A stretch of 64,000 nt of DNA from assembly GCA_016860985.1 (NCBI GenBank), contig BOKM01000001.1, positions 399,462-463,461 on the forward strand, written 5' to 3'. The stretch comes from Patescibacteria group bacterium. GTDB taxonomy: Bacteria > Patescibacteriota > Dojkabacteria > GCA-002793355. Below the pieces are notes generated by a model, which saw nothing but the letters and a program-made list of their open reading frames with translations, was not told where the DNA came from and made no database searches. The translations under genes were made by a program, and so were the position numbers. Shown piece after piece: positions 4,878-61,043 of the stretch. How positions within the stretch are numbered: the first letter of the stretch is position 1; each line of letters begins with the position of its first letter.

Positions 4878-5645
4878 GTGGTGCAACAAGAAAGCATCAG
4901 TATCCTCCCCGTTGCGAAGGACGACACTGACAAAATAAACGAGTGCGCAACACTCTTGGCAAACGAATTTGCGGATACTCTACGCGCAAAAGAGGAATAT
5001 CAAAAGAATGTAAAACTCTTTTCTTCTCCTACTTCCTACTGTTTTCAGGTTACAGCAAACAATCGATTTATCGGTATTATTGCGCTCAATTGTCACCCTT
5101 GGGAACAAATTAAAGAGCAGCTTTACCTCTCTCCTTCCACAAATAATGTAAAAGAAGAATTTAAGGAAGTTTCACTTGTTCCTTTTCGTACACTTATTGA
5201 ACACAAAAAATTAAAACCGCAAATGGTTGTTGATTACGCTTACACTTATATCTGCCCCTCTGAACGTGGCAAAGGATATGCAAGCAAGGCGTGGGAACTC
5301 CAAGAAGAATATGTATTAAGAAACTTTCCGAACTCTATTGGAATTATTATCGTCAGAAAAGCCAACTGCGCGCGAACAGATTGTCAAACTGTACTCCTTC
5401 ATATGCTCGCAAAAGAGCGACAGGCACAAGGCTTAGACCCTTCTGCATACGTGCAGGTAAAAGGAATCCCAATCTCCACAAAAGAAATAAAAAAAGCTGC
5501 ACAGATTTCGTACCCTATTTCTTTTTACAATGGTGTACAAGAAATGTCACATCTAGCAACTAAATATGGATTTACACCCTTTGCATTTACCAAAGCGTTT
5601 TGTCCTGTGTTTATCAAGAAAAATACTCCTACTCATGCAGAGTAA
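4878..5645 (+). CDS. Hypothetical protein, possibly GNAT-like
   Basis: The segment YICPSERGKGYASKAWE resembles the GNAT motif A (R/QxxGxG/A). Otherwise unassigned. Confidence 0.3.
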   Translation: MVQQESISILPVAKDDTDKINECATLLANEFADTLRAKEEYQKNVKLFSSPTSYCFQVTANNRFIGIIALNCHPWEQIKEQLYLSPSTNNVKEEFKEVSLVPFRTLIEHKKLKPQMVVDYAYTYICPSERGKGYASKAWELQEEYVLRNFPNSIGIIIVRKANCARTDCQTVLLHMLAKERQAQGLDPSAYVQVKGIPISTKEIKKAAQISYPISFYNGVQEMSHLATKYGFTPFAFTKAFCPVFIKKNTPTHAE

Positions 5646-8600
5646 GGTCGAGTGTTAACACGCGAACACGTTCTTTACCTTCAGGAAGGATCTCAATAAA
5701 CGGAACCCCTGAAGCAAACATTTTCGTAGTGTCCATAAGCTTTAGGTGATAGCGAGCATTTGGAACAACAAAGCTATATTCGCCTGACGTACTCGTAAAC
5801 GTACGGTAAAGCAAAGTATTGAACTCTGGATCAAACAACCCCAGCTCTAGCCCAGCAACTGCTACACCTTTGGTAGTTTTAACACTTCCGGTCGACTTTT
5901 TAGGAAGGAGCTGCACAATCTTAGCCAACAACAGCAACACATACACGCCAAGCACAATGAAGTTGTATTTGTGAGGATAGATATACGCAATATACCCTCC
6001 ATACGCAAAGCCGCCTAACAACAGTGCGTTGCTAAAGAACTCAATCACCTTTGTGAACATACTTTGAGCCTGTAAACGCTTTCGTTCTTGGTCGGAAAGC
6101 GTAACCGAATCGAGCGGAATCGAAAAGAGCATTCCTTCCGAAGCGTTTGTCAACTCAATCTCTTGACCTTTATAGATATTATTAAAACCACCATCATTAT
6201 CAGCAGTTATTACAGAAGAAGGGAAGGTGTATCCGGCAAGTGTCACTGAAATGGTAAAGACACCTTGTTTTGGACTGAGACGAAAACTTCCTGTTGCATC
6301 TGAAACTACGGTATCTGCAATCTCTTTGTTGATATGTATCAACCGTACAACGGCTCGAGGAAGTGGCTTCTTTGTACGAGAGTCGTACACTACCCCACAT
6401 TTCTGTCGTTTTTTTCTACTGATAAACCCAGCCAAAGAGAGCCAGATATTCCCAAAGATAGTTGGTTGCTGTAACGCAATGACTGCTTCAATCGCAAGCA
6501 TGCTTGACCCAACCACAATTGTGTTACGCCAAGGGAGTTCAGTTGCTACCATTACAGTTACTGTTTTTACGGCTGTGCAATAGCCATTGTCAGCCGTAAT
6601 ACTATACTCTTTTGTTATTTCTGGCTTAAAAGTTACTGAATCCACCGGAGTAAAATCCTCTTTAAAGCCCGCAATGCGAACGATTTCTGTATTTTTTGTT
6701 GTCCACGAAAGAGTAATTTCTCCTCCTTTTTTTATTAGTGTTTCAGAGGTAGTAAATGTATCAAAAGTTGGGCACGCCGGAGTCGTTCCTTTTACCACTG
6801 GAGGCAAGGTTACAGCTGCGATTACACGAGGAGTGGATACCGGGGTTGCGACAATAGTATTCGTTGGAGTCGTGGTTGGTGTAAGCGTGACGGTTGTTGT
6901 CGGAGTCGCAGTAACGGTTGTTGTTGGTGTGGCAGTTGGAGTTGTTGTGCCATAACTCATGGCACCAGTTCCATCTAACCCACTTACCTTCCAGTACTCT
7001 TTGCCATCAACAGTTACTACTTCAAGTTCTGCAGAGCTTTCCGTAAGTACATAGCCACCGGTACAAGTTGAGCTAATGTCCGCAACTGTTACTGCATTTG
7101 GGCAAACGCGAACCGAGGTTTGCCCCGGTAATTTGTAAATATAAATTGAGTGCGTACTTGAAATACCTGGTGCAGTTGTTGGATTAAGATTAACTACGAG
7201 CGACTTTGACGCATTGGGCAATGTGATTGCATTTACTTGACTCCAGTCTCGATCTTCTGACAAATCAATATTAAAATCTGATACAAGATATTCCCCGAAA
7301 GTAAGGAGCGCATTAAGGTTATCAATTCCTGGGCTAGCCGGATTGTAGTACCTGCTCACCAAACTTGTATTCTCAGACGTAGAAAACTGCTCTTCTCCCG
7401 TAATTTCTTCTGCCGTAGATATTACATCTGCACTTGAAATTAGATTGTATATTCGCGTACCTGAAGGCACGAGTTGCACACGGTGGTTCGCCAAGTCTGC
7501 AACGGTAATAACACCTGATACCGGATTACGCGCTAAGCCTCGTGGTTCGTAGTATTCTTCCGTTCCACTCCCTGTTACTGCTCCGTATTTACGAAGAAAT
7601 ACGCCAGAATCGTTGAATACTTGAATTTTAGTATGATAACTCTCTGATACATGAAGATTCCCCTCTTCGTCAAAGGCCATACCTCCAATATCAAAGAAAG
7701 CTCCGTCTGCGTCGCCAGCTTCACCACCAATTGTTCTCACATACGTTCCGTTTGTGTCAAAGACCTGAATCACCGATTTACTTACAATTTCATCATTGTA
7801 TTCTTCGGTTTTTGAAGAGACATAAATCTGATCGCTTGAGTCAATAATAATTGCTAGAATTTGCCCAAACTCTCCATTTGCTTCTCCAAAGGTTCCCCAC
7901 TGGGTAAGGTAATTGCCAGCGCTATCAAATTTCTGCACTCTGTGATTACGCGAATCTCCCACATAGATATTTCCGGTCGAATCGACTGCTATTCCGTAGC
8001 CACCTTGAAATTGCCCATCACCAGTTCCTGCTGCTTCGATGTGCAGTAGCTGTGAGCCATCAAGTGCGAATTTATGAAATCCACTATTATCAGAAACGTA
8101 AATTTGGTCATTTTTTATCGTCATAAAATAGGCTTCAGTGTCAAAAGTAGGTGGTTCAACTATCGTTTCCATATACGTTCCCGCATTTGTGAATTTCTGA
8201 ATTCTGCCTTCATATGCACCGTTATCGAGGACATATAAGTTACCCTCAGAATCGTATGCAACAGCACGAGGGAAACTGAATTTACCCGAAGTAAACCCAC
8301 TATTTCTCACACTCGACACAAATACTCTTGAGCTAGAAAATTTTTGAATCGCTTGATGGTCGTAATCTGCAATGTAATAGTTACCTGCTGAATCTGTAAC
8401 CACATCAACAGGAGTTAATATCTGCCACGCACTATGACCGTGTTCCCCCCACGACCTAATCCAATCACCATCACTTTCGAATTCAATAATTTTGTGACCA
8501 TCTGTTCCGTGTGCAGATGTTACCAATACATCTCCATTTGCTTTTACATGAATACCTCGAGGCACTGCAAGTTGTCCATCTCCATTTCCACAACTGCCGA

Positions 8601-9291
8601 AAGTTCTTATAAATGTCCCCGAAGGAGAAAAAACTTCAACTCTACAGTTGGGTTCAGAATCAACTACATATACATTTCCTGAAGCGTCGGTCGCAACGCC
8701 CTGTGGGTCCATAAACTGCCCATCACCCGAACCTTCTGAACCGAAAGAAGAAATAAATGTACCATTTACGGAGCGTTTAACAACTCTGTGATTATCACCA
8801 TCACTAACATAAAGGCTGTTACTCGCCGAATCGTAATGAATATATGTTGCATTGGAATAAGTTTCTCCTTCAGGTTGATCGAGCCCCCAGGAATCTATAT
8901 ATCCTCCATTACTATCTAGTTTGTAAGTCCAGTGCGCTGTTTGCACATAAAGGTTGTCTTGATTGTCTACAGTAAGTCCGGTAATTCCGATAGAAAACTC
9001 GCCCTCTCCATCGCCATACCTCCCAACAGTTCTTACTATTTCTCCATCTGCGTTCACTTTTACCAAGCGATAATTCAAATGATCGGTATACCAAACGCTT
9101 CCATCTGACATAACAACTAAGCTAACAGGTTTTCCAATATTTCGGTACGACTCAGGTAGATAGACCGCTTGCGACGATTCGGCCTTAACCTCTGGATTAT
9201 CGTTCTTAATGGCAAACGAATTAACACTCGTATACACAGCAACAAAGGAAAAAGCTATAAGGACCCCAAAAAGGTAAAGTTTTTTATTCAT
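5629..9291 (-). CDS. Giant surface protein: signal peptide, NHL-repeat beta-propeller region, Thr/Pro linker and the conserved C-terminal membrane module
   Basis: Signal peptide MNKKLYLFGVLIAFSFVAVYTSVNSFA. Many NHL-like blades (for example YVVDSEPNCRVEVFSPSGTFIRTFG). A TPT repeat linker. The C-terminus contains GVVYDSRTKKPLPRAVVRLI..DTVVSDATGSFRL (CarboxypepD_reg-like) flanked by TM helices. It is paralogous over the last ~430 aa to 41859..45038 and 45007..48837. Confidence 0.8.
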   Translation of the reverse strand: MNKKLYLFGVLIAFSFVAVYTSVNSFAIKNDNPEVKAESSQAVYLPESYRNIGKPVSLVVMSDGSVWYTDHLNYRLVKVNADGEIVRTVGRYGDGEGEFSIGITGLTVDNQDNLYVQTAHWTYKLDSNGGYIDSWGLDQPEGETYSNATYIHYDSASNSLYVSDGDNHRVVKRSVNGTFISSFGSEGSGDGQFMDPQGVATDASGNVYVVDSEPNCRVEVFSPSGTFIRTFGSCGNGDGQLAVPRGIHVKANGDVLVTSAHGTDGHKIIEFESDGDWIRSWGEHGHSAWQILTPVDVVTDSAGNYYIADYDHQAIQKFSSSRVFVSSVRNSGFTSGKFSFPRAVAYDSEGNLYVLDNGAYEGRIQKFTNAGTYMETIVEPPTFDTEAYFMTIKNDQIYVSDNSGFHKFALDGSQLLHIEAAGTGDGQFQGGYGIAVDSTGNIYVGDSRNHRVQKFDSAGNYLTQWGTFGEANGEFGQILAIIIDSSDQIYVSSKTEEYNDEIVSKSVIQVFDTNGTYVRTIGGEAGDADGAFFDIGGMAFDEEGNLHVSESYHTKIQVFNDSGVFLRKYGAVTGSGTEEYYEPRGLARNPVSGVITVADLANHRVQLVPSGTRIYNLISSADVISTAEEITGEEQFSTSENTSLVSRYYNPASPGIDNLNALLTFGEYLVSDFNIDLSEDRDWSQVNAITLPNASKSLVVNLNPTTAPGISSTHSIYIYKLPGQTSVRVCPNAVTVADISSTCTGGYVLTESSAELEVVTVDGKEYWKVSGLDGTGAMSYGTTTPTATPTTTVTATPTTTVTLTPTTTPTNTIVATPVSTPRVIAAVTLPPVVKGTTPACPTFDTFTTSETLIKKGGEITLSWTTKNTEIVRIAGFKEDFTPVDSVTFKPEITKEYSITADNGYCTAVKTVTVMVATELPWRNTIVVGSSMLAIEAVIALQQPTIFGNIWLSLAGFISRKKRQKCGVVYDSRTKKPLPRAVVRLIHINKEIADTVVSDATGSFRLSPKQGVFTISVTLAGYTFPSSVITADNDGGFNNIYKGQEIELTNASEGMLFSIPLDSVTLSDQERKRLQAQSMFTKVIEFFSNALLLGGFAYGGYIAYIYPHKYNFIVLGVYVLLLLAKIVQLLPKKSTGSVKTTKGVAVAGLELGLFDPEFNTLLYRTFTSTSGEYSFVVPNARYHLKLMDTTKMFASGVPFIEILPEGKERVRVLTLDLTLHE
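6835..6960. repeat. Tandem short repeats encoding the TPT(A/V)TPTTTVT linker in the NHL protein
   Basis: Repeated acggttgttgt(y)gg(w)gt units are visible in the DNA. The encoded Thr/Pro tract sits between the ectodomain and the C-terminal module. Confidence 0.5.
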
Positions 9292-11593: not shown

Positions 11594-14500
11594 TTATTGC
11601 CCTGCTTGACACAGTGCATGGGTAGAAGTTCCACAAATAAGGTCGACTGTTTTCTCGGTTCCTAATAATGGCCGTAACGTATCAAGCAGCGATGCATCGT
11701 AAACAATCCATTCAGAGGGATACCTGCGATTATCAACTGGCGCGAGATTTCTCTTAAACAAAGGAACTGTATCGGAAGCATATACCCATCCGTGAATTTC
11801 TAGTCGGTCTGTACTTTTAGTCGTTGCGCCTCTTTCTCCTTTTGTGACACGGAGTTGTGCGCTTGAAGTAGCAATAATTGCTGCATCAAAACGGTCAACA
11901 ATAGGTGATCCTTTTCCATCTCCGGCAGGGGGGCGGGGTAAATCGCTTGGAACATCTTCAATTGTTAAAGAAGCGCCGTTAGCAAGTACAAAGACACAAC
12001 CATTACCTGCTCCAGCGGTTTTCTTTACTTGTCCTCGCATGATCAGATTACCCGTCACAAATATCACATTCGCTTTTGAACATGAAATATCGGATACCAC
12101 CGTTCCACCTGATGAGTACAGAATGTTCAGGTCTGCTTGCCCAATACTCGATAAACTCCCTGTTGTTTGGCACGTGCCAGAGCTTTCAGTGTTCATGCGT
12201 TCACAGTTTAGAATAGCAGTTGAGCGGAGCCGGTCATATTCATTGCCAGGTAAGAATGGTACATGTCCAAACAAGTCATATTCAGTTACACCATAGCGAT
12301 AATAATTATCGAATCCTAGCTGCATATTTTGCCCACCAACAAGATGTCCACCCGTCAATCCTGTTCCTTGAGCAGGTGACCCTGCAGTCATAAAATAACC
12401 GGTCAGTAGTGTAAAAGATTGTCTGGTAAAAGGTGCGTACACATTTCGAGTGTTGTCGTTTGTGGTGCCATCGTCCGTCGGGAGTGATTGAGCAAAAGGA
12501 ACAGCTCCACCCTTTGCACTGTAGACATCCCCATACGAGGTTTTTAACCACGGACCAAGAAATACATAAACCTCTTTATTTCTCCCACATCCCATGTTTC
12601 CAGCTCCATCGTAGACACACAATCCCGTTACGATTGAGTTGCCTGCACCGATTTCTTCACCAATTATTGTTATGGAATTCCCCGTTATGCTTTTCCTATC
12701 ATTTTTTCCATCATAAGGGATACCACCAATCTCTTTGAGTGCCCAAGCTCTATCACCAAGTGCTTCATCATCTAACTCCTCTTGCCGAATCATAAATCGA
12801 TTTGTCACTCCTTTGATGCCAGAACCACCTACGTTATCATTCATCGAAAAAGTAGCAGCAGCACCAGTTAATCCTTGCACCGCCCAAGAAACGTAGTTTA
12901 CTGTCGGAGGTATCGGATCATACAGCAACGTAACTTCACCTCCTGCTGGGCACATTGCGCCAAGACATAAATTGCGGGATTTATCAAACTTTAGCCATCC
13001 TTCATCACCTTTGCCAATTGCGTTCCCAAGTGGAGCGCTTACTTTATCAAGGGCACTCACAAATATTGAATATTCGCCCTCTGGCATCCCTTGCCCACCG
13101 TCTTTATCATTAAAATATACTCCAAAACGGAATGTTAAAGCTGTTGGATCTGATACAGAAGGAACTATCCCTTCTCTTTTAACACATGCCGCACACTGAG
13201 CAGGGCAAGTAGAAACAGGTACAGATACTGGGAGTACCGTGGGAACAGCGCTTTGTGATGAGTAGCAGATTAAGTGATTTGCATCCGCTGCAATTGCCCA
13301 ATCGTAGTTTTCAAGAAGTTGTGCGTTTGTTCCCGCGGTTATGGAAGCAACAGATGGCAAGTTGGAATTTGTGCAGCCAGAAGGGGTCTGTTGGCAGTCG
13401 GGAAAACCTTTCTCTTGCCAATCACGCTGACTTGCCCATTGCATCTTACCTTCTTTAATGTTGCCATTACTTCCAACTGTTTGTCCTAATTCATTAATAA
13501 GCGCAAGTGCAGAGAATTGCTGTTTAGCACTCCCCAATAAAGACGGATTAACACAAGTGCTACCTAAACAAGCAGTCGAAATTAAATTCCACGCGGCGCG
13601 CAGATTCACAATATGAGAGTTTTCTTTTTCAGAATACATTGCTTGAATACTATTTCTCATACCTGATTGCACCAAAGGCAATGCCACTACATCCCGGTTT
13701 AACGCTGTTCGCTGAAGCCAGATCCCTGCTTGCATGATATCATCGCTGCCATTTGCATCTCTAACTGTATACTCAACCAAGAGGGGGTTTCTCCGCTGAC
13801 TCATGCTCGTTTCGAATTTTTCTGCACCAATGGGGCATATTATTGGATCATCAATTGTTAATGACTCGCTACAGTAAGAAGCCCTTGCTTTAGTTTGACT
13901 CGAATAGGTTGTTCCCATAATTATTTGTGAACGACCATCAAGAAGATTTCCATTTCCTGTGGCACCCTTATCTTGCACCGCAGTCATTGAGTCAGCATCT
14001 GAAATAACAATAGAGGAAAGTTGAGGAGCTTGATTCTCTACTTGAATTGCAACCCTACAAGTCACTGGAGTAGAAGCGACATCAGGACCTGGCCCATCAG
14101 AATCTTGGTCAGCTATATCTATCTCAAGAAAACCACTACAAAGAGAACGTCCACTAATATTTTCAAAAAGCCCATGAGATTCTCGGGCGTCTACAAGAAA
14201 TTGTGTTGCTTGAGTAATCGCGGCAGGGTTGTCACTTCCATTCCGAACTGTTGCACCTATGAGCGATCCACCTCCAGCACTCTTAATAGTTGCACAAGAG
14301 TTCAAATTGCCAGAAGAGTTCTCAACTCTGACTGCCAACACATTGACCGTATCACCATAATCGTTATCTGAAACGGAGAGCGTAAATGACTTTGGCTGAT
14401 CTTCCCTAGTGAGTGAAATCGACGCAGTATTTATCGAACAAGAAGGTGTAGCATTTCTGTAAAGTGGATCACAATTGTAAGAAGAAGGTACGCAGTTATT

Positions 14501-15226
14501 ACACGACACACCCGTACCCTGGGGAACGGCTCGTGTTCTGAATTTTGTAGAAGACTCACCAGCAGGACAAGCAACAGGCGTACAATTACACGACTCCTCA
14601 AAGGTATACCACATCATATAGTCATTAAAATCGTAGTCACCGCCCCATTCGTCCCAATCGCCCCAACACTGCAAGGGACCAAGAGGATTACCATTGTCAC
14701 CGTTTTGAACCATGCTTCTAAAACTCGTACTGTCTGCAAAACCATAGTTCCCGTCTGGTTTTCCTCGACTTGGAGGGCATGGGCACCCTGTTCCGCAAGT
14801 ATTTGCATACGATCCTGTATTCTCAGTTTTCCATCCAACATTTGGATAGGTACAACTTCCATAACAATCGTATGTTCTTACAGTAATTCGATCAGAAGCA
14901 ACAACGTCCAAGGTCGCTGCTACTCCGGTAGTTGGATATGCATTTTGTATAACACTTCCATTCTTAGAAATTTCTAGCCGTTGCCCTCCACCCATCGTTG
15001 TCCAAATTCGGAGCTTTCCTTGGGTTGGAAACGAATTTATTGTGTGGCTGTTGCCCATGCTCCACAGGGCAGAATTGCATGACACGTTGGGGCCATTTGG
15101 GCAGGCGAATACAGGGTTTGTTGAAGCTATATAAACCGGCACAATAAGCAATACTATATAGGCAAGAATACTCCTTAATTTATTAAAGAGTTTATTTTCC
15201 ATAGAGATATACCCATAAAATACCAT
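11594..15226 (-). CDS. Very large (1210 aa) Cys-rich secreted protein of unknown function
   Basis: N-terminal signal or anchor. A long, uninterrupted ORF with many Cys plus Gly/Asn/Ser-rich segments. No recognisable catalytic motif. Confidence 0.6.
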   Translation of the reverse strand: MVFYGYISMENKLFNKLRSILAYIVLLIVPVYIASTNPVFACPNGPNVSCNSALWSMGNSHTINSFPTQGKLRIWTTMGGGQRLEISKNGSVIQNAYPTTGVAATLDVVASDRITVRTYDCYGSCTYPNVGWKTENTGSYANTCGTGCPCPPSRGKPDGNYGFADSTSFRSMVQNGDNGNPLGPLQCWGDWDEWGGDYDFNDYMMWYTFEESCNCTPVACPAGESSTKFRTRAVPQGTGVSCNNCVPSSYNCDPLYRNATPSCSINTASISLTREDQPKSFTLSVSDNDYGDTVNVLAVRVENSSGNLNSCATIKSAGGGSLIGATVRNGSDNPAAITQATQFLVDARESHGLFENISGRSLCSGFLEIDIADQDSDGPGPDVASTPVTCRVAIQVENQAPQLSSIVISDADSMTAVQDKGATGNGNLLDGRSQIIMGTTYSSQTKARASYCSESLTIDDPIICPIGAEKFETSMSQRRNPLLVEYTVRDANGSDDIMQAGIWLQRTALNRDVVALPLVQSGMRNSIQAMYSEKENSHIVNLRAAWNLISTACLGSTCVNPSLLGSAKQQFSALALINELGQTVGSNGNIKEGKMQWASQRDWQEKGFPDCQQTPSGCTNSNLPSVASITAGTNAQLLENYDWAIAADANHLICYSSQSAVPTVLPVSVPVSTCPAQCAACVKREGIVPSVSDPTALTFRFGVYFNDKDGGQGMPEGEYSIFVSALDKVSAPLGNAIGKGDEGWLKFDKSRNLCLGAMCPAGGEVTLLYDPIPPTVNYVSWAVQGLTGAAATFSMNDNVGGSGIKGVTNRFMIRQEELDDEALGDRAWALKEIGGIPYDGKNDRKSITGNSITIIGEEIGAGNSIVTGLCVYDGAGNMGCGRNKEVYVFLGPWLKTSYGDVYSAKGGAVPFAQSLPTDDGTTNDNTRNVYAPFTRQSFTLLTGYFMTAGSPAQGTGLTGGHLVGGQNMQLGFDNYYRYGVTEYDLFGHVPFLPGNEYDRLRSTAILNCERMNTESSGTCQTTGSLSSIGQADLNILYSSGGTVVSDISCSKANVIFVTGNLIMRGQVKKTAGAGNGCVFVLANGASLTIEDVPSDLPRPPAGDGKGSPIVDRFDAAIIATSSAQLRVTKGERGATTKSTDRLEIHGWVYASDTVPLFKRNLAPVDNRRYPSEWIVYDASLLDTLRPLLGTEKTVDLICGTSTHALCQAGQ

Positions 15227-16595: not shown

Positions 16596-18029
16596 TTAAT
16601 TCGCCGCTGCTCTGGTCAACCTCTCCATTATTGTTCTTCCTAAACCTTTTCGCGGAAAGGACTGTGCAAAAACAAGAGAATATCGTTTTGCATCGCACTC
16701 CAGCAGTGCCCCAAAAATTGACGCAGCAATTGACGACAAATCCCGTTCACTTCCAAGAATGATCCGATTTACTTTTTTAGGAATTAGTGTCGCGAATTCT
16801 TTTGAACAAAGGATGCAAACACTTTCATGTGGGTTTTCATTGATTACTTTCAATAAATGTGCCCTCCACTTCTTTTTTGAATTAAGCGGCAAAACCGTCA
16901 ACTTCCCATTCGGAGCATAATGTTTGTACTTTGTTCCAGGAGACGAGCGTAAGTTTGTATCGTCTTCACCGGCGATAAGCACCTCATGAGTCGGGAACGT
17001 TGTCTTCAACTCCTCCTTTGTAATTGCTCCTTGCCTCATAATCACTATTTGCTCTTCATTTTTTGGGAGTACAACCGTAGATTCAATACCAAAGGTCGTG
17101 GGGCCACCAAGTACCACATGAGGAACTTCACTACCAAAGGCGTTTATAACATGAGCATGGTGCGTTGCGCTGGGCTTTCCAGATTTATTTGCAGAAGGTG
17201 CTGCAATCGGAACTCTTGCCGCGGCAAGGAGCTCTAGTGCAAATAAATTTGCAGGAATCCTAACTCCAACCAAAGAAGAATGCGCGGTAACTACAGACGG
17301 TAAGTTGTCATTTTTTGGAAGGAGTACCGTTAAAGGGCCAGGACTAAAATGCATAAACAGTGAAGTTGCGAGCTTCGGTACAGTTTGAGCGACTTCGTGG
17401 AGCTGTTCTACAGACGAAACGTGAACAATGAGGGGATTATCTGCAGGGCGATTCTTTGCACGAAAGATTTTTTCGACCGCAAAGGAGTCAAATGCATGTG
17501 CTCCAAGTCCGTATACTGTCTCGGTGGGAAAAGCAACGAGTTCTCCTTCTCTAATTTTTGCTCCAAAACGCTCAAAATCCTGGGAGAGCCACATTAGTTC
17601 GGGGACATTTACGTTCGGTGGGAGAACATTACCATACAGTTGCTGAACCAAGAAGGCAAACACTCGGGAAAAGAGTGTGAGCATATGAACAGCAGCCGTC
17701 GGAAGATCTTCCCACTCAGCGGACTTCACCTTTTTCTTGTTTCCAATTGTAAGATTTACCGTATTCACTGAGCAGAAAAAATAACTAATCCGACTTTCCG
17801 GTATAAGTGGATGGGCACGTTCTGCGATACAGGAAACTATCTCAATATCCATTCCGATATCAGATTTCACTTCTCTTTTAAGCGCAACCTCTGGGAGCTC
17901 TCCGTCAAGAACTTTACCCCCAGGTAATACGGCAGGAACCCCTCTAAACGACGGACGAATTTCTTCGCGCAGATGCTCTACTATTAGTTTTCCTTTGTGA
18001 ATTATTACGGCAAGCGCGACACGTTGCAT
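16596..18029 (-). CDS. Fusion of an N-terminal Nudix-hydrolase domain with L-threonylcarbamoyladenylate synthase (Sua5/YrdC/TsaC) including the Sua5 C-terminal domain
   Basis: Nudix box GGKVLDGELPEVALKREVKSDIG, in which the catalytic EE is replaced by SD. YrdC motifs FPTETVYGLG and KNRPADNPLIVHV are present. The C-terminal ~120 aa resemble the Sua5 domain. Confidence 0.8.
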   Translation of the reverse strand: MQRVALAVIIHKGKLIVEHLREEIRPSFRGVPAVLPGGKVLDGELPEVALKREVKSDIGMDIEIVSCIAERAHPLIPESRISYFFCSVNTVNLTIGNKKKVKSAEWEDLPTAAVHMLTLFSRVFAFLVQQLYGNVLPPNVNVPELMWLSQDFERFGAKIREGELVAFPTETVYGLGAHAFDSFAVEKIFRAKNRPADNPLIVHVSSVEQLHEVAQTVPKLATSLFMHFSPGPLTVLLPKNDNLPSVVTAHSSLVGVRIPANLFALELLAAARVPIAAPSANKSGKPSATHHAHVINAFGSEVPHVVLGGPTTFGIESTVVLPKNEEQIVIMRQGAITKEELKTTFPTHEVLIAGEDDTNLRSSPGTKYKHYAPNGKLTVLPLNSKKKWRAHLLKVINENPHESVCILCSKEFATLIPKKVNRIILGSERDLSSIAASIFGALLECDAKRYSLVFAQSFPRKGLGRTIMERLTRAAAN

Positions 18030-18063
18030 ACCGAATTATACCAATTATCCAGACCTTCTGCGC

Positions 18064-20061
18064 CTATTTGGTATAAAAGACAAAATATTTTTTTACTTTG
18101 ATACCTGTTGCAATATCTTGGAATTCCATAATATACGCATACTTGCGTTTTGTAGGTAACAGATAATTAGTGCGAACACTAAGAGAGGTTGAAGATTTCC
18201 AAATTTTAGTGAATCCTTGATTACCCTTTTTCACATAATCATACAAGAAGAACTGGGTTACTTTAATCTTTTTGGGATCATAATTCTTCAAATAGACCAT
18301 ATCCCAAGATCGAAGCTGCGAGGTAGTAAAAGTTTTACCATACCGTAACCGCCCAAAAGTAAAATATACATTAGTCAATGTTGTTGGAAGATCTGCAGTA
18401 AACAATGTTTTTGTTGGACTCGTGCGATAAGACTCCGTTTCTGGCGAACCTGTTTGATCGTATGCACATTCAACACCAAACAAAATAATGTCGTTAGGTT
18501 GTACACTAGTGTGGACGGTGAAAGTAGCACTCAAAGGTACCGTTGCCCCTGCAGCAAACGCAACTGGTGAATCAAAGGTTACTGTTGAGTACAGTGTGTT
18601 TTCGCTTATTGATGTAATTTGAGTCGCCCCTTGCGAGATAAGTGAGATAGAAAATGCAGGTGCAGTTTGTGTTCTTGTTGTATTTTTGCTCGTAACCGTA
18701 CACGAGTTAATCTGTGCTGCGAATGTAGAATTATTTGTAATTTCAATATTCTGAGTGTAGGTAACCCCTTTTTTCACGGGATTAATTGGTGAAGGATAAG
18801 TAACCGCCGTTGCAGAATAAATTTGTGATAAATCTAAAACGCCATTTCCAAAAGTTGTGTCGTAACCTGCAGCTCCCAAATCTCTAATAGTCGTCGTATT
18901 AAGGAGTGATAAAATATACGCTCGTTTATCAGGACACACAGAAAGCCCTGGGTTTGCGGTACACTGCTCGTCAACCATACCTTTGACTATACCCGCTACT
19001 CCAGAATAATAAGCAGTCGATATACTTGTACCACTCACTGCCCCATATCCACCTCCTCTTAGTGTTGTAGAGATATCTACTCCTGGAGTCATCACATCAA
19101 GATTTGCGCCGTAATTGCTAAAACCTGCCTTTGCATCTGTATTGTCCGTCGAGCCAACACACACAACGTTTTCGTATCCTGCTGGATAAAGACACCCTTC
19201 TGTTCCGCCATTACCTGCAGCGGCGACCACAATAATACCTGCATCAGTTGCTGCCTGGACTGCTGATTGAATGAGTGCATTTGCACTACCCCCTAGACTC
19301 AAATTAATCACATCTACCCCTGCCAAAACGGCTGCGTCAATCCCCTCTGCAATCGAGACCGAATCACAATCACCACTAGAATTACAAACTTTAAATGGAA
19401 GAATTTTGGCGCTATATGCGATACCTTTGAATCCAATACTATTATCGACGCTCGCAATTGCCCCTGCCATAGCTGTGCCATGCCCTTGATCGTCTGTTGG
19501 ATCCGCGTCGTCATTTACAAAATCGTAACCTCCAGGCAAAAAAACATCTGCTAAATCAGGGTGAGTAAAATCGACTCCTGTATCTATTAATCCAATTACA
19601 ACATTTTCACCTGAATAATTTGCAGCATTTTCCCATGCTGCTTCTCCATTCATTTTTGTGATCCCCCAATCGACTGATTGTTGCGAAATTTTATAGGTAT
19701 CGTTGTTGTAGCCCGCTTCAACCAAAGGATGTTCCATTAGTTTTTGATACCTACTTTCGTCTTTTGGTGTAATAACATATTTATTCTTTCCTCGTTTACG
19801 TTTTTGAAATATAACACTGAATTCTGATTCTAGAGTGCTCATTTCTTCCGATGTTAGTTCCCGAACGAACTGAACCACACGAGTCTTTGTTTTATGTGAC
19901 ACTTGAACCACGGCACGAGACTCTTTTTTATTATTCTCAACAATTGGAAGCACAACCCCATTGGAACCCGAATCTGTTGCGAAAACTGCTTTAACTGCAA
20001 TAAATGGGTGTAAAAACAGTATTGTGACAAGTAAGAGTGCCTGAATCCTTAGCAATTTCAT
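18064..20061 (-). CDS. Subtilisin-like serine protease (peptidase S8) with an N-terminal I9 pro-domain and a C-terminal extension
   Basis: Asp/His/Ser catalytic triad motifs: GLIDTGVDFTHPDL, DDQGHGTAMAG and GTSISTAYYSGVAGIV. Likely start at MKLLRIQ with a signal peptide. Confidence 0.85.
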   Translation of the reverse strand: MKLLRIQALLLVTILFLHPFIAVKAVFATDSGSNGVVLPIVENNKKESRAVVQVSHKTKTRVVQFVRELTSEEMSTLESEFSVIFQKRKRGKNKYVITPKDESRYQKLMEHPLVEAGYNNDTYKISQQSVDWGITKMNGEAAWENAANYSGENVVIGLIDTGVDFTHPDLADVFLPGGYDFVNDDADPTDDQGHGTAMAGAIASVDNSIGFKGIAYSAKILPFKVCNSSGDCDSVSIAEGIDAAVLAGVDVINLSLGGSANALIQSAVQAATDAGIIVVAAAGNGGTEGCLYPAGYENVVCVGSTDNTDAKAGFSNYGANLDVMTPGVDISTTLRGGGYGAVSGTSISTAYYSGVAGIVKGMVDEQCTANPGLSVCPDKRAYILSLLNTTTIRDLGAAGYDTTFGNGVLDLSQIYSATAVTYPSPINPVKKGVTYTQNIEITNNSTFAAQINSCTVTSKNTTRTQTAPAFSISLISQGATQITSISENTLYSTVTFDSPVAFAAGATVPLSATFTVHTSVQPNDIILFGVECAYDQTGSPETESYRTSPTKTLFTADLPTTLTNVYFTFGRLRYGKTFTTSQLRSWDMVYLKNYDPKKIKVTQFFLYDYVKKGNQGFTKIWKSSTSLSVRTNYLLPTKRKYAYIMEFQDIATGIKVKKYFVFYTK

Positions 20062-20128
20062 TAAATCAGTATAACATAATGCGCACATTTCCCGCTTGCA
20101 ACAATACTAATCTGCTACAATAGATGAC

Positions 20129-21889
20129 ATGAGAAAGTCAGTGCTTAGCACAATTACAATTATCGCAACAACCGCAGTGTCTTTGGTTTTATTCCGCCCA
20201 ACCGAAGATTCAACGAATAGTACAAAAAAGGATATTCCTTCAGAAGTCAAAGGTATCGTAACCGCACTCGAGCCAAAAATTACTTCCTCCTCCACTATCG
20301 ACGTGACACCTTCTCCCTCTCCTTCCACACAACCATCAATCACGCCAACACCAACTATTATTTCAACTCAATCTACTCAGAAAGAACAATCCGGTTTGCA
20401 AGTACAACGAGTTTCCCCTGAGCCTGAGAAGAAAACGACTACCGAAGCAGGAGCAGTTACTACATTAAGCCTCAATAATCTGCAAAAAGGTACGCTTTAC
20501 GAGGTTAAGCTCCCATTAGATATCTCAGCAAGCAACCTCAGTATTTCTTGGCCAGCAAGTAGCAGCATACCTTTATGGACAACTACACTCCCGACAAGTA
20601 TTTCACAACTTGCACCTCTTCCGCACGACGACGACATGATAACGGTGGAACTGACGAATCACTCTGGTCTTCTCCCTTTTCCCGTAGGCAAAACCTTATA
20701 CCTTTATCCGACACAAACAATTGCGAAAGCGACAATATCTCTCATTGCACCAAATGCAGAAGTTAACTCTCACAAAATCTCTACCACCGGTGTATATAAT
20801 TCTAACTCTGGGGCAAGTTATACCTCCCTAAATATTAAGACTCGTGATGAATGGGGAGCAAACCCTGCAACCTGGGATTCGAATACAAGCGCAAACATAG
20901 ACGATCCCTCACGGCTTATTTGGTATCCGGTTTATTACAAGGCATCCAGAATTGTTGTTCACCACACAGCAACAGGTATAAATACAACAAACCCTGCAGC
21001 ATCAGTTCGTGCCATATATCTTTATCATGCATACACACGAAAATGGGGTGACATAGGTTACAACTTCCTTATTGATCACAACGGTACAATCTACGAAGGC
21101 AAAGCAGGTGGGGATGAAACGCAAGGATACCATGCCTTTGGCGCAGCAAATCGAATGAGTGTAGGGATTAGCGTAATTGGCGATTACTCCTACTCGGCAC
21201 CATCGTCTAAAGCTAGAAGTTCTCTTGTAAAACTCATGGCAGAAAAAGCAGCATTCTACGGTTTTCGACTCAAATATTCAGACGGAGGAACTGCAAAGTG
21301 GAGAGATATTTCATATACAGTATTTGGGCACAGAACCTCTTATCAGTGGGATTACGATACTAATTCTTGGAAAGTTAATCAAACCGCTTGTCCAGGAAAT
21401 GCATTCGCAGCTATTCTTCCATCTTTAACTCAAGAGGCAGAAAATTACAGGAGCGCTAACTACTCAAGCCTAAAAAAACTTGCTCAAGATGTTGATGCAG
21501 CTTTTGAAGAACCACATGATCAGGGTACAATTATTGTTCGGTATAACGTTCCCGAAGATACAACAGAAGAAGTAATGCGTACATTTGTTCCAGCATATAG
21601 CGGAATAAAAAGTTACACGATTAGCGGAAATACAATAACGTACAAAATTGAAAGTGGGATAGTGATTCACCCCTACTACGGAGATTCAGAGTACCTAGTT
21701 GTACCAGATAACTGGACAGGATATGACGGTGAATACGCCACATTCAGTATCCCTTACGAAATGAACGGAGTAAAAGACAGATCAAAAACACTGCTTAAAG
21801 TTTTCAAACTGGATAGCAGAGTTCAAGCAGCAGATTTAAAGCATTATCTTCAAGTTCAAGAAATTGAGCCGCTTCAAAATGAAGATTAG
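20129..21889 (+). CDS. N-acetylmuramoyl-L-alanine amidase (Amidase_2/PGRP family) with a signal peptide, Ser/Thr/Pro linker and C-terminal extension
   Basis: The segment VVHHTA..IGYNFLIDHNGTIYEGK..GYHAFGAANRMSVGISVIGDY carries the Amidase_2 zinc-site motifs. Confidence 0.8.
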   Translation: MRKSVLSTITIIATTAVSLVLFRPTEDSTNSTKKDIPSEVKGIVTALEPKITSSSTIDVTPSPSPSTQPSITPTPTIISTQSTQKEQSGLQVQRVSPEPEKKTTTEAGAVTTLSLNNLQKGTLYEVKLPLDISASNLSISWPASSSIPLWTTTLPTSISQLAPLPHDDDMITVELTNHSGLLPFPVGKTLYLYPTQTIAKATISLIAPNAEVNSHKISTTGVYNSNSGASYTSLNIKTRDEWGANPATWDSNTSANIDDPSRLIWYPVYYKASRIVVHHTATGINTTNPAASVRAIYLYHAYTRKWGDIGYNFLIDHNGTIYEGKAGGDETQGYHAFGAANRMSVGISVIGDYSYSAPSSKARSSLVKLMAEKAAFYGFRLKYSDGGTAKWRDISYTVFGHRTSYQWDYDTNSWKVNQTACPGNAFAAILPSLTQEAENYRSANYSSLKKLAQDVDAAFEEPHDQGTIIVRYNVPEDTTEEVMRTFVPAYSGIKSYTISGNTITYKIESGIVIHPYYGDSEYLVVPDNWTGYDGEYATFSIPYEMNGVKDRSKTLLKVFKLDSRVQAADLKHYLQVQEIEPLQNED

Positions 21890-41858: not shown

Positions 41859-44800
41859 TTATTTATTCTCATCTAGAACAAGAGTCGTTGTAACTAATGT
41901 AAGGTTGTCGCGATTGTTCTTAGAGTCCACATATATCGCTTTTACTTTTTGTCCTGCCTCAATGATTGAATACCGGTTATCCATGACCTTAAGGTAGTAA
42001 GCACCACTCGCGACCGCGAAATTATAATTTCCTTCTTTATCAGTAAATGTTCTGTATAAAAGATTTTTAAACTCAGTATCAAATAACCCCAATTCTACCC
42101 CGCCAACTGCCTCACCCTTTTTTGTTCGTACAGTTCCAACTTTCTTGCTGTGTAAGAGAAGTAATAGTGCTTTTGCCCCAAGAATAACGAGATAAAGTGA
42201 TACAGCAAAATAATTGTATATGTGCGGGTAAACAAAACTTGCATACAGACTGTACACGAGCCCTACTAACAATAATCCTGTGCTCCCATATGCTGCAATG
42301 CGATCAATAACGGATACTATTTTCACCCTTTGTGCCTGTGCCTCACTAATGACAATTGGATCCATAGGAACTGAAAGCATAACAGTATCAGCAGCATTTT
42401 TCACTGCAAAAGACTTTCCAAGATACACATTTGCATAACCTCCATCAACAAGTTGATTAACCAAGGAAGAAGGAAACGAATACAATGGGTGGTCAACCGT
42501 TAGAATATATTCTCCTGCATGTGCAGACAATCTCATGACTCCGTTCGCATCTGTAACCACCGTATCTACGATTTTTCCGCCATTTTGAGTTTTCAAACGT
42601 ACAACTGCTCGAGCAATAGGCTTTTTCGTCACCGAATCATAAACAACCCCGTAGCTTCTTCTTCTTTTTCTATCTAGAAAACCGGCGAGCGCCAAGAATA
42701 TATTCCCTTGCACTGTATTTTGCATCGCGATGGCACCACCTTTTGCAGCCAGCGCATAGACTGAGGCAAACTGTATAACAGCCGCTTCTACCACCAGTGC
42801 ACCGGCGCCAATTGCTGTGGCATTGCTCCACGGAACAGTTTTTACTACAGCAATCTCTCGTTGTATTTTTGAATTACAATTTCCATTATCTGCCATAAGA
42901 TTTATTGTCATCGATGTTGGAGGAGTTATTACCTTTTCTCCCTGTGGAGGAAGGTGCGCATCATACCCACTCCACACTACTCTAGTCGCATTTGTCGCTT
43001 TCCAAGAGAAGGTTAGCGTTTCACCTTCTTCAATGACGGTACTTGATACTTTTAGGTAGTCAAACGTTGGACAACTCTGAGTTTCGATTTCATTTTGCTT
43101 TGGAGGTAAATCATTATCCCCTGTCACTGGTGGCAAGGTAGGAATCATTATGGAAGAGGAAGGCAAAACTGTAGTTATACCAGTAGTGCTACCTGTAACT
43201 GTTGTAGTCACAGAAGTTGTCACCGAGGATGTAACTGTTATCGTGGTTGTTACTGTTCCGGTTGGGGTTGTTGTTCCAGATGTTGTAGCAGTTGTGGTCG
43301 GTGTGGCAGTAGAAGACGAGGTTGGAGTACTTGTTGGCGTATCAGATGGTGAATCGGTGGGAGTATCAGTAGGAGTATCGGTTGGTGTTGGTGTTGCAGT
43401 TGGAGTACTCGTAGGAGCGACGTACTGAAAACTTGGATAGCCATCGTTGTAGCTTCCAGTAATTACCCAAAGACTCGAGAAATTCCACCCAGAAAAGGTT
43501 CCTTCTGTCTTCATTGCGGATGTGCTTTCCCCACTACCTCCCGCGCTATTTGATTCTCCGCTTGTATCTGTATCCCAATAACTTGATGTGATACTTCCAG
43601 TCCCTTGACTATATCCGGCAAAACCTCCGATGTCCCATTCATAATCTGGTTCTGTGTTTACCGTAAGTCCGCCTGCTGCATAACTGTTAGTGATAGTCGA
43701 TGTGCGAAATTCTCCCACAAACCCACCAATTGCCCACGCATAGTTACCATCTTGAGGGTTTGGTGAATTAACAGTAACCGATGCCCGTGTGTAGGAGTTC
43801 GAAATTGTGCCACTTCGATGTTCTCCAACAAAACCTCCAACACCAGAAACGTCTTCAAGAGCGGTAACCGTAACATTTCCAGTTGCAAACGATTCCTGAA
43901 TAGAGGGATTGGCTTGTCCATACCTATTTCTTGTTAATCCTGTGAACCCACCAATGTCATTTCCCCACGGACCTGTATTCGAAACACTTCCTGTTGAATA
44001 ACTTCTTAATACGGTTGCTCCGTCATATACTGTTCCAGCAAAACCACCAACATCATAGTTGTCTTCTCCATCGGCCGTAACATTTCCAGTTGAATAGCAA
44101 TCTTCTACTCTAGTTGTTCCGAGATACGTACCATATCCTCCCAGACCACCAACAAACCCCGCATTGTCGTAGTTATCACCATAGCCACTCGCTGCTCCAA
44201 CTCCCACATGCACATCACCAGTAGCATAGCTTCTGTAGACTTCAGAACTGCCGACTTGCCAACCAACAAATCCTCCGGTGAAATACGTATCGACCCCACT
44301 ACTAATATCCCCGGTTGCATAAGAATCTTCAATTACCGCAGTACCGCGAGTCATCCCCACAAAACCGCCTGTTCCTCCATAAACTCCATCGAGGAGACTA
44401 ATTTCTACATTTGCATGACTGGTCGTGATGTAGGCATCACCTTCTGCTATACCTACCAAACCACCGACAGTTTCAGTGTCGTAGTCCATTATGACTTGCG
44501 TAATAGTACCTGTTGCACTGCTATGGTGAAGTTCTCCTCCGTTCATCGTGCCAACGAGGGTACTTATCGTCCCCATAGAGCTTACCGATTTAACCACTTG
44601 GACGTTTGTAAGATTTACACCGGTAATTGTCGCCCCATTTGTATTTGCAAAAAGCCCAGTCGATGTCGCATTAACCACCAACGAGAGATTTTGTATTTCG
44701 TAACTGTCACCATCGTATCTACCTTCAAATCCCCCTCCCGACAATCCAATTGGCGTAAACGATACGGCAGTACAATCAATATCATTCATTTGAAGATAAT

Positions 44801-45038
44801 AGGCAGTAAGATCCGAATCAACTTCTTGCAATTGTGCGCAGGTTGTTACTTGATACGGATCACCAATCGTTCCTGTACCTGAACCAGAAAAAGCTGATGC
44901 CTGCTTACCTTTTACTAATGCGAGAATAGTTACAAAAACGAGCACTGATGCAACAGACAATATCAATGACCAGGATTGAAGTATCCATACAAAAAATGAA
45001 TGAGTGCTACGGCGCTGCATTGTTTGCGAGATTAACAA
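41859..45038 (-). CDS. Giant surface protein: N-terminal anchor, about nine GLUG-motif repeats, Thr/Pro/Ser linker and the conserved C-terminal membrane module
   Basis: Recurring GGLVG/GGFVG...Y.TG.V units (VGGLVGIAEGD, TGGFVGMTRG, IGGFVGEFRTS and others) match the GLUG motif. The C-terminal RRRSYGVVYDSVTKKPIARAVVRLK..DTVVTDANGVMRL and GVELGLFDTEFKNLLYRTFTDKEGNYNF are homologous to the tails of 5629..9291 and 45007..48837. Confidence 0.75.
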   Translation of the reverse strand: MLISQTMQRRSTHSFFVWILQSWSLILSVASVLVFVTILALVKGKQASAFSGSGTGTIGDPYQVTTCAQLQEVDSDLTAYYLQMNDIDCTAVSFTPIGLSGGGFEGRYDGDSYEIQNLSLVVNATSTGLFANTNGATITGVNLTNVQVVKSVSSMGTISTLVGTMNGGELHHSSATGTITQVIMDYDTETVGGLVGIAEGDAYITTSHANVEISLLDGVYGGTGGFVGMTRGTAVIEDSYATGDISSGVDTYFTGGFVGWQVGSSEVYRSYATGDVHVGVGAASGYGDNYDNAGFVGGLGGYGTYLGTTRVEDCYSTGNVTADGEDNYDVGGFAGTVYDGATVLRSYSTGSVSNTGPWGNDIGGFTGLTRNRYGQANPSIQESFATGNVTVTALEDVSGVGGFVGEHRSGTISNSYTRASVTVNSPNPQDGNYAWAIGGFVGEFRTSTITNSYAAGGLTVNTEPDYEWDIGGFAGYSQGTGSITSSYWDTDTSGESNSAGGSGESTSAMKTEGTFSGWNFSSLWVITGSYNDGYPSFQYVAPTSTPTATPTPTDTPTDTPTDSPSDTPTSTPTSSSTATPTTTATTSGTTTPTGTVTTTITVTSSVTTSVTTTVTGSTTGITTVLPSSSIMIPTLPPVTGDNDLPPKQNEIETQSCPTFDYLKVSSTVIEEGETLTFSWKATNATRVVWSGYDAHLPPQGEKVITPPTSMTINLMADNGNCNSKIQREIAVVKTVPWSNATAIGAGALVVEAAVIQFASVYALAAKGGAIAMQNTVQGNIFLALAGFLDRKRRRSYGVVYDSVTKKPIARAVVRLKTQNGGKIVDTVVTDANGVMRLSAHAGEYILTVDHPLYSFPSSLVNQLVDGGYANVYLGKSFAVKNAADTVMLSVPMDPIVISEAQAQRVKIVSVIDRIAAYGSTGLLLVGLVYSLYASFVYPHIYNYFAVSLYLVILGAKALLLLLHSKKVGTVRTKKGEAVGGVELGLFDTEFKNLLYRTFTDKEGNYNFAVASGAYYLKVMDNRYSIIEAGQKVKAIYVDSKNNRDNLTLVTTTLVLDENK
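43195..43430. repeat. Thr/Pro/Ser-rich repeat tract (coding) in the GLUG protein linker
   Basis: Encodes TPTATPTPTDTPTDTPTDSPSDTPTSTPTSSSTATPTTTATTSGTTTPTGT. The DNA shows short, imperfect tandem units. Confidence 0.5.
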
Positions 45039-49684: not shown

Positions 49685-50241
49685 TACCTACTCTTATGCC
49701 AGAATTCAAAAACCAAGGAAACCTTTTTGGGGCAGCACCCGATCGACCATATCATCTGTCGGTTGGAGTTGTAGTGCTCAATGCCGACAATGATATTTTA
49801 GCGCTTTACTACCCAACTATCGACGAGATTACTGACATCTACGTACTTCCGAATAAAACAGTAAAGCCAAACGAAACCCCTGCTGACGCGGCAATCCGAG
49901 GGGCAAAACAAGAACTAGGATGTGATATACAAATTATAACTTTTCTTGGGAGCACTCAAACTCAAGATATTTGGTGGAAAGAGATTGAAACGCCAAAGCC
50001 AGTAGAAAAGACCGTTTTATACTTTTTGGCTCGCGCCACGAATCAAGATTCGGCTGCCGTAAAAGACGTAAACGAAACAGAGGGAAGAACAGTAGTCGCA
50101 AAAACCTTTGGATTCCTTATCGAGAACATGAGCAAAACACAGTTAAAGGATGGGATGAGGGATTTCAACCATGCAGCAATATTAGCAAGAGCACAAACGT
50201 GGATTTCAACTCACCCAGATTTACAATCGGAAACGCTTTAA
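49654..50241 (+). CDS. NUDIX hydrolase
   Basis: A Nudix-box-like segment NETPADAAIRGAKQELG follows a beta-rich N-region (VGVVVLNADNDILAL). Confidence 0.55.
   Translation: MAKNKKKIKVIPTLMPEFKNQGNLFGAAPDRPYHLSVGVVVLNADNDILALYYPTIDEITDIYVLPNKTVKPNETPADAAIRGAKQELGCDIQIITFLGSTQTQDIWWKEIETPKPVEKTVLYFLARATNQDSAAVKDVNETEGRTVVAKTFGFLIENMSKTQLKDGMRDFNHAAILARAQTWISTHPDLQSETL

Positions 50242-55859: not shown

Positions 55860-57352
<1,493 letters not shown>

Positions 57353-59387: not shown

Positions 59388-61043
<1,656 letters not shown>

Follow-up and report, generated by a model that had tools for sequence, protein, structure and literature searches.

Few tRNA modifications are universal; N6-threonylcarbamoyladenosine at position 37 (t6A37) is among them, and the architectures of its first enzyme, the threonylcarbamoyl-AMP (TC-AMP) synthase TsaC/Sua5, have been surveyed repeatedly; papers on the family name only the SUA5, HypF, TobZ, and TsaN fusions (PMC10484737, PMC10321239). 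Delivery of TC-AMP to TsaD is an open question, which HypF and TobZ solve by domain fusion (PMC10484737). Non-catalytic Nudix domains typically lie within multidomain proteins, where they bind small molecules or other domains, and NUDT21/CFIm25 is a precedent for a degenerate Nudix box (PMC5389931). Here, we describe a gene in a 64-kb stretch of a genome from the uncultured Dojkabacteria (Patescibacteria), a small group (contig BOKM01000001.1, positions 399,462 to 463,461; "the window" hereafter means this whole stretch), which codes for a Nudix-like domain joined to the N-terminus of a Sua5 protein. With a probability that we put at about 0.6, the Nudix domain is a non-catalytic accessory (binding) module on a working TC-AMP synthase, its loss of catalysis being read from the sequence.

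Residues 156-477 of the fusion protein resemble the solved Sua5/TsaC2 enzymes of S. tokodaii (2EQA/3AJE), P. abyssi (6F87), and T. maritima (9D3H) in having YrdC and SUA5 domains and the KxR/SxN tetrad, but the fusion adds about 155 residues at the N-terminus, comprising a Nudix fold and a linker, that are present in no solved or described Sua5. The added domain shares its fold, its length, and several motifs (PGG, G59, I68, RxHP, Y83..C86, W106, and a C-terminal M-x-T-L...V helix) with free-standing MutT-like Nudix proteins (PF00293/PF14815 NUDIX_4), although these stand alone and have a canonical box (REhxEEtGl), a conserved acidic loop, and acidic charge. NrtR, DBC1, the NUDT9-H domain of TRPM2, NUDT21/CFIm25, and the C-terminal domain of MutY likewise combine a Nudix fold and a degenerate box within a larger protein (PMC5389931); unlike them, the domain described here has a tRNA-modification enzyme as its partner, which is new, and it is known from sequence and model, with no specific sequence relationship to any of them. 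HypF, TobZ, and the Pandoravirus TsaN (TsaD-TsaC-SUA5-TcdA) also join a TsaC-like adenylate-forming domain to an extra domain (PMC10484737, PMC10321239), but theirs is the next pathway enzyme, Kae1/TsaD-like, whereas here it is a predicted disabled, non-pathway domain. Full-text literature searches returned no paper describing a Nudix-Sua5 or Nudix-YrdC fusion, and a clan-wide Nudix review has zero occurrences of "Sua5" or "threonylcarbamoyl" (PMC5389931). At this locus, the accessory domain is new for Sua5 and the partner is new for a putatively non-catalytic Nudix domain, and the surveys bear out a preliminary description of this DNA, made from the sequence, which had held the architecture to be non-canonical.

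That description had placed a Nudix domain fused to Sua5/TsaC at 16596-18029, with the two glutamates of a degenerate Nudix box replaced by S and D. All of this holds: the gene is a single 477-amino-acid open reading frame (ORF) on the minus strand, which that description had left unstated, with three Pfam domains, the replacements are S56 and D57 in the alignments, and the box is degenerate here and in every ortholog found. The features of the gene, in window coordinates, with the evidence for each in parentheses (dN/dS is the ratio of nonsynonymous to synonymous substitution rates), are:

16596..18029, minus strand: whole gene, a Nudix-like domain fused to Sua5, 477 amino acids (ORF list, Pfam, NCBIfam, 17 full-length orthologous clusters)
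18029..18027 and 16596..16598, minus strand: gene ends, the ATG and the stop codon, respectively
17640..18029, minus strand: N-terminal Nudix-fold domain, residues 1-130, of MutT-like origin and with catalytic residues lost (PF00293, AlphaFold2, Foldseek, dN/dS)
17850..17918, minus strand: degenerate Nudix box, residues 38-60, GKVLDGELPEVALKREVKSDIGM, with E56 replaced by S and E57 by D (sequence, alignments, column table)
17853..17876, minus strand: REVKSDIG, residues 52-59 (sequence)
17730..17732, minus strand: K100, a charge reversal relative to the D of free-standing relatives (alignment, column table)
17565..17639, minus strand: linker of roughly 25 amino acids, residues 131-155 (alignments, AlphaFold2, dN/dS 0.18)
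17025..17564, minus strand: YrdC/TsaC-like catalytic domain, residues 156-335 (PF01300; identity to solved Sua5 structures)
17448..17456, minus strand: KxR half of the catalytic tetrad, K192-N-R194 (alignment; aligned to 2EQA)
17187..17195, minus strand: SxN half of the catalytic tetrad, S279-A-N281 (alignment; aligned to 2EQA)
16596..17024, minus strand: SUA5 C-terminal domain, residues 336-477, plus the stop codon (PF03481, Foldseek)
18035..18043, minus strand: TGGTATAAT, a perfect extended -10 element (upstream alignment)

The N-terminal 130 amino acids do score as Nudix in profile searches. In Pfam, NUDIX (PF00293) matches residues 3-113 (35.1 bits, E 1.5e-8; curated cutoff 21.1), Sua5_yciO_yrdC (PF01300) matches residues 159-334 (180.6 bits; cutoff 25.1), and Sua5_C (PF03481) matches residues 336-476 (87.2 bits), with no Pfam match to Peptidase_M22/TsaD in the fusion protein. 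With a cutoff of 123.2, TIGR00057 (the NCBIfam equivalog for L-threonylcarbamoyladenylate synthase) gives a score of 179.8, and the weak secondary NCBIfam matches on the N-terminus are all to MutT-type Nudix families. A profile built from 14 orthologous N-domains and searched against the PDB found Nudix proteins only, the best being the putative CTP pyrophosphohydrolase 3gwy (E 1.1e-5). The AlphaFold2 model of residues 1-146 (mean predicted local distance difference test score, pLDDT, of 89.4) has a Nudix-like strand-helix-strand pattern with the box on helix 46-58, and a Foldseek search with the N-domain model against the PDB returned only Nudix enzymes (NudC, MutT2, BdRppH, DR1025, and MutT; E about 1e-9, template-modeling [TM] scores 0.65-0.73). 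Because the profile search, the model, and Foldseek agree, the Nudix assignment is sound beyond the single weak Pfam match, and the N-terminus is predicted to have the Nudix fold (beta-grasp, alpha/beta/alpha).

The remainder of the protein looks like an ordinary Sua5. In the full-length AlphaFold2 model (pLDDT 88.6, predicted TM score [pTM] 0.87), the Sua5 part superposes on T. maritima TsaC2 (9D3H), P. abyssi Sua5 (6F87), and S. tokodaii Sua5 (2EQA), with target-normalized TM scores of 0.84-0.86 and 38-39% identity to the solved enzymes; none of the Foldseek PDB matches is a solved structure spanning both the Nudix and the Sua5 parts. K192, R194, S279, and N281 are invariant across 21 aligned sequences and align to 2EQA, and this KxR/SxN tetrad served as the criterion for functional family members in a TsaC/Sua5 survey (PMC10321239). 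The intact motifs and fold suggest that the Sua5 part is a working TC-AMP synthase, which would use Thr, bicarbonate, and ATP. Between the two parts, the linker is modeled with low confidence (pLDDT about 60); its sequence is nevertheless constrained, with conserved YG..L and PEL.WL motifs.

The Nudix box is where the fused domain departs from its relatives. In the register GX5EX7REUXEEXGU, the window protein has G38-KVLDG-E44-LPEVALK-R52-E53-V-K-S56-D57-I-G59-M, and it reads GX5EX7REVKSDIGM rather than the canonical consensus. None of the 17 clusters of fused proteins that we identified (see below) has an intact box, with E44, R52, E53, E56, and E57 variable across them, and different subsets of the catalytic residues are lost in the closer and the more distant copies. 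Among the 12 closer orthologs, position 56 is S, H, A, T, R, K, or Q (with E also found elsewhere in the fused set), position 53 is E, K, or Q (with I also in the wider set), and position 57 is always D; position 52 is R, E, H, or Q across the fused orthologs. The distant members P0121 (RKVKEEAGL) and P0271 (RKVFEECGL) keep the EE pair but have K53, as does P0017, and the window protein and P0001-P0004 retain G38, E44, R52, and E53, with D57 a conservative change. In the fused ortholog P0272 (465 amino acids), most of the box helix is gone (GGEVTLDTFLNNFHLNKERITKISERIHP), yet the domain is otherwise kept, the RxHP motif included, which suggests that the domain's role is independent of the box helix.

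To compare the fused domain with its free-standing counterparts, we took the columns that are at least 80% conserved among 18 free-standing relatives. There are 26 such columns, of which the fused family keeps 13 (P36, G37, G38, A49, G59, I68, R71, H73, P74, Y83, C86, W106, and V123) and loses 13, the losses including the five charged box residues (E44, R52, E53, E56, and E57), F35, and D100. Column 100, in a loop that aligns close to E98 of MutT, has D in 15 of the 18 free-standing relatives, whereas all 12 closer fused orthologs have K. The PDB profile search independently aligned query residues 32-62 to residues 32-62 of 1mut. The acidic loop of the free-standing relatives (ENDDIEE-like) is replaced in the fused copies by a conserved basic loop, N97-K-K-K100, and the net charge of the N-domain, about -4.5 in the free-standing relatives, is about +2 in the fused copies, although it spans -4 to +13 among the fused orthologs. 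Since the metal-binding carboxylates are gone or variable while the scaffold and the RxHP/Y/C/W set persist, the domain would be best described as a pseudo-enzyme that is kept by selection.

After the fused proteins themselves, the best matches to the N-domain profile among 1.84 billion representatives are free-standing Nudix proteins of 130-150 amino acids, aligned end to end with E values of 1e-25 to 1e-17. These free-standing relatives carry canonical boxes, and the closest of them, P0122 (WKZ30343.1), whose box reads GGKVEESETLEEAAIREAYEETGL, bears the annotation NUDIX hydrolase, comes from Candidatus Dojkabacteria, and matches both PF00293 and PF14815. Its gene neighborhood contains uracil-DNA glycosylase (UDG), DNA-alkylation-repair, and methyltransferase-type repair genes, a setting that plausibly suits a MutT-like enzyme cleaning the nucleotide pool. 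The idiosyncratic motifs of the fused domain (PGG, RxHP, Y..C, W.D, and the C-terminal MxTL...V helix) are also present in the free-standing relatives, and on these sequence comparisons the fused domain descends from a free-standing MutT-type nucleoside triphosphate (NTP) pyrophosphohydrolase of the same bacterial lineage. At the two related loci with an unfused Sua5, L001 and L002, we found no pre-fusion state with a Nudix gene directly upstream of Sua5. A free-standing Nudix gene with an intact box does lie immediately 3' of, and convergent with, the gene for the distant fused member P0121 (L012, 8451..8894, minus strand). We rejected this gene as the donor because it belongs to a different subfamily, scoring 43.9 bits to the family hidden Markov model (HMM) as against about 160-175 for members.

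We searched for the full-length architecture among 5.8 billion protein clusters and found it in 17 (P0001-P0012, P0017, P0018, P0121, P0271, and P0272), with identities to the window protein ranging from 98% down to about 40%. The fused clusters share their start and come from independent NCBI, JGI, ENA, and Logan assemblies, including the complete genome CP129470.1, and such recurrence shows that the fusion is not an artifact of assembly or gene calling. Where the sources name the fused proteins, they call them "L-threonylcarbamoyladenylate synthase" from Patescibacteria or Candidatus Dojkabacteria, and every cluster with a named taxon belongs to one of these two groups. The exhaustive HMM search with the N-domain profile against the 1.84 billion representatives, clustered at 50% identity, recovered four fused clusters, and two species-representative genomes carry the fusion, both Dojkabacteria and one of them closed, at 0.89 Mb; the GTDB genome scan with the N-domain alignment, which used a single narrow degenerate pattern and gave two loci, serves for taxonomy and not as a census. 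Pfam fails to detect the Nudix domain in several fused orthologs. Our census covers this Nudix subfamily, with Sua5 fusions to unrelated Nudix subfamilies outside its reach. Within that scope the fusion is rare, occurs in a single lineage, and is annotated solely by its Sua5 name; it is not, as the preliminary description had allowed it might be, a common fusion with a known role.

The longer proteins among the profile matches were considered as independent Nudix-Sua5 fusions and rejected, as their tandem Nudix domains are joined to TIR, HD-CE, HTH, or hydrolase domains. In seven of these (P0154, P0194, P0220, P0247, P0179, P0168, and P0147), the same Nudix subfamily forms C-terminal tandem double-Nudix modules, with TIR, HD-CE, HTH_3, or alpha/beta-hydrolase domains at the N-termini and no Sua5 in any. 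These architectures look like those of defense or signaling proteins.

The fused Nudix domain is under strong constraint. Between the window gene and its 88%-identical ortholog, for which the synonymous divergence is unsaturated (dS 0.5-0.8), dN/dS is 0.065 for the Nudix domain, 0.18 for the linker, 0.078 for the YrdC domain, and 0.13 for the SUA5 domain. Conservation across all orthologs is higher in the N-domain than in the SUA5 domain, and there are 15 invariant positions among N-domains whose identity falls to about 31%. The Nudix domain is thus maintained by purifying selection and is not decaying.

Fused and unfused forms of Sua5 occur in the same gene order. A divergent Amidase_2 gene, a Peptidase_S8 gene, and the Nudix-Sua5 gene are found in this order in the window, L005, and L006, and L002 has the same Amidase_2/Peptidase_S8/Sua5 order but with a Sua5 of 327 amino acids that lacks the Nudix domain and starts 44 nt after the peptidase gene; the Sua5 at L001 is likewise unfused. 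The existence of a syntenic ortholog without the domain suggests that the domain is accessory and apparently dispensable for t6A chemistry. In a neighbor-joining tree of the Sua5 part, fused and unfused forms are interleaved, the fused P0012, for example, being joined to the unfused P0023 and P0024 with 84% bootstrap support; since the backbone is poorly supported, we claim the interleaving alone and not a number of gains or losses. We note that the Amidase_2/Peptidase_S8/Sua5 block (18064..21889 in the window for the neighboring genes) is kept across Dojkabacteria with or without the Nudix domain, at L002, L005, L006, and L014, being rearranged in L014.

Where the fusion is present, it appears to be obligate, as the alignment has no conserved internal Met at the domain boundary and an extended -10 element lies right before the ATG of the N-domain. 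This element ends 5 nt before the ATG and is invariant at the window, L005, and L006, with the neighboring intergenic bases variable; possibly it drives transcription of a leaderless mRNA beginning at the ATG of the N-domain. A promoter scan requiring two hexamers called nothing upstream of the gene, having missed the element because there is no -35 match.

We propose the following scenario for the gene product, which would be a Sua5-type L-threonylcarbamoyl-AMP synthase catalyzing the first step of tRNA t6A37 synthesis. A MutT-type Nudix domain of the same lineage would have become the N-terminus of Sua5, and the carboxylates that hold the catalytic Mg2+ would have been replaced after the fusion, E56 by S, E57 by D, and D100 by K, with orthologs also changing E53 to K or Q and R52 to E, H, or Q. 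The beta-grasp scaffold would have been retained, together with certain residues of the pocket or core (G37, G38, G59, I68, R71, H73, P74, Y83, C86, W106, and V123). The YrdC and SUA5 domains presumably make TC-AMP as in an ordinary Sua5, with no need of the Nudix domain, which would act as a sensor or local store by holding a nucleotide or phosphate ligand (ATP, AMP, or an NTP), or else dock a partner; either the bound ligand or the partner could then modulate or assist the production or hand-off of TC-AMP. Of the probability given above for a non-catalytic binding module, perhaps half would fall to nucleotide or phosphate-ligand binding specifically, a weight that comes from the NTP pyrophosphohydrolase ancestry and from the lysines now at former metal-ligand positions.

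A more specific and rather speculative version, which we would expect to be wrong more often than right, is that the disabled domain is a nucleotide sensor or holder (for ATP, AMP, or damaged NTPs) that couples t6A to the nucleotide pool, or that it retains TC-AMP for TsaD. Here, the lysines K100, K53, and K/R56 of the closer orthologs would replace Mg2+ ions in holding phosphates. If true, it would amount to a lineage-specific regulatory or channeling layer on a universal tRNA modification in a genome-reduced bacterium of the candidate phyla radiation (CPR).

Several observations weigh against assigning the domain a non-catalytic binding role. The retained residues may be purely structural and not a ligand pocket, and the window protein's own subclade, by keeping G38, E44, R52, and E53, may leave weak or altered catalysis open for this particular protein; some active Nudix enzymes do use variant boxes, as does GDP-mannose mannosyl hydrolase, with RLx2AE (PMC5389931). 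At most, the pTM of the full-length model hints at a fixed arrangement of the domains. A strict threshold singled out no residue of the Sua5 part as particular to the fused forms, which leaves a co-evolved interface unsupported. Only N261 and F263 (nt about 17241..17249) stand out at a relaxed threshold, where most fused orthologs read R-I-P-A-N-x-F and the unfused relatives and solved Sua5 enzymes read P-x-H-P-I (N replaces H in 12 of 17 and F replaces I in 13 of 17), and this change is the sole hint that the Sua5 part has altered along with the fusion. No genes for the t6A partners TsaD, TsaB, and TsaE adjoin the gene in the window or in seven related loci, and the six-frame translation of the 64-kb window contains no TsaD, TsaE, or TsaB signature motifs, although the motif test is weak.

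The alternatives differ in what they ask of the Nudix domain. It could be a docking, oligomerization, or RNA-contact module that tethers Sua5 to TsaD/TsaB/TsaE, to tRNA, or to another Sua5 protomer for the handing over of TC-AMP, for which the HypF and TobZ solutions to TC-AMP delivery offer a parallel (PMC10484737). The shift toward positive charge and the basic loop that replaces the acidic one would suit such contacts, although the net charge is only mildly positive and varies widely among the orthologs, and the retention of the domain in P0272 even without the box helix is also consistent with docking. Nudix domains that have no catalytic activity can serve in protein contacts, and NUDT21/CFIm25, with its degenerate box, binds RNA. 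The lack of an adjoining partner gene at any examined locus and of fused-specific interface residues in the Sua5 part counts against docking, and no result here separates it from ligand binding; we regard it as a possible but doubtful account, with odds of the order of one in a handful. The preliminary description had proposed that the domain binds a nucleotide rather than hydrolyzing one, and this stands in part: the selective loss of carboxylates, the kept scaffold, and the strong purifying selection speak for it, but a docking or structural role is equally open. The ligands that it suggested (TC-AMP, ATP, or a regulatory nucleotide) are conjectural.

That description had also raised a proofreading or pyrophosphatase activity with altered chemistry, which our results disfavor. 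In this case, the domain would be an enzyme of reduced or altered chemistry, a slow hydrolase of NTP or pyrophosphate or a "proofreading" hydrolase of TC-AMP, acting through E44, R52, E53, and D57, perhaps with one metal ion. The residues retained in the window protein and P0001-P0004, the D57 of all 12 closer orthologs, and the EE pair of the distant P0121 and P0271, which differ from the consensus only at E53K, are what would be expected of it, and variant boxes can serve other chemistries (PMC5389931). Set against these is the lack of any catalytic constellation common to orthologs that are under the same purifying selection, as positions 52, 53, and 56 vary and D100 is replaced by K, and P0272 is without most of the box helix. 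In E. coli MutT, mutations of E53 and E57 cost about 10^4-10^5 in kcat, which also counts against a residual enzyme, and we think it unlikely. A functionless remnant heading for deletion, or an artifact of assembly or gene calling, is by far the least credible account: Sua5 does lack the domain in some lineages and Pfam misses it in several orthologs, but its dN/dS is as low as that of the catalytic domain, its 15 invariant positions persist among very divergent N-domains, its fold is predicted confidently, the start codon and the upstream -10 element are conserved, and the same architecture recurs in all 17 clusters from independent assemblies, a closed genome among them.

A non-catalytic accessory module on a working TC-AMP synthase would make this locus a clean natural case of an enzyme domain becoming a pseudo-enzyme after fusion, with the free-standing progenitor family persisting in the same lineage and the syntenic ortholog that lacks the domain providing a natural control. 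Should a nucleotide or a t6A partner prove to be its ligand, the fusion would bear on how the unstable TC-AMP is controlled or delivered; if there is no such binding, it is a tidy example of domain co-option, mainly of interest to researchers working on the Nudix clan and on CPR genomes.

A second Nudix ORF lies elsewhere in the window (49654..50241, plus strand; 195 amino acids; PF00293, 34.9 bits), adjoining an AI-2E transporter gene, and its box is also degenerate, PNKTVKPNETPADAAIRGAKQELGC, with no GG, RE changed to RG, and EE to QE. The box is intact, GTIEENEPLESTVKRELLEETGL, in the syntenic ortholog from the complete Dojkabacteria genome (L014, 1488..1997). Counting this second ORF, damaged boxes are found in two Nudix domains of the lineage.

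Searches of the 64-kb window for tRNA, rRNA, and Rfam families found none. Four very large ORFs of 1059-1276 amino acids are present, all on the minus strand (5629..9291, 11594..15226, 41859..45038, and 45007..48837), with NHL/beta-propeller, CarboxypepD_reg, GLUG, and SpaA-like domains, except that the product of 11594..15226 has no Pfam match; they probably code for surface or secreted proteins, and large proteins of this kind are common in CPR genomes. Housekeeping genes in the window include those for a tRNA-guanine transglycosylase (TGT; 56255..57352, plus strand), a primary-type sigma-70 factor (54327..55838, minus strand), and GroEL (59412..61043, plus strand), the TGT being another tRNA-modification enzyme.

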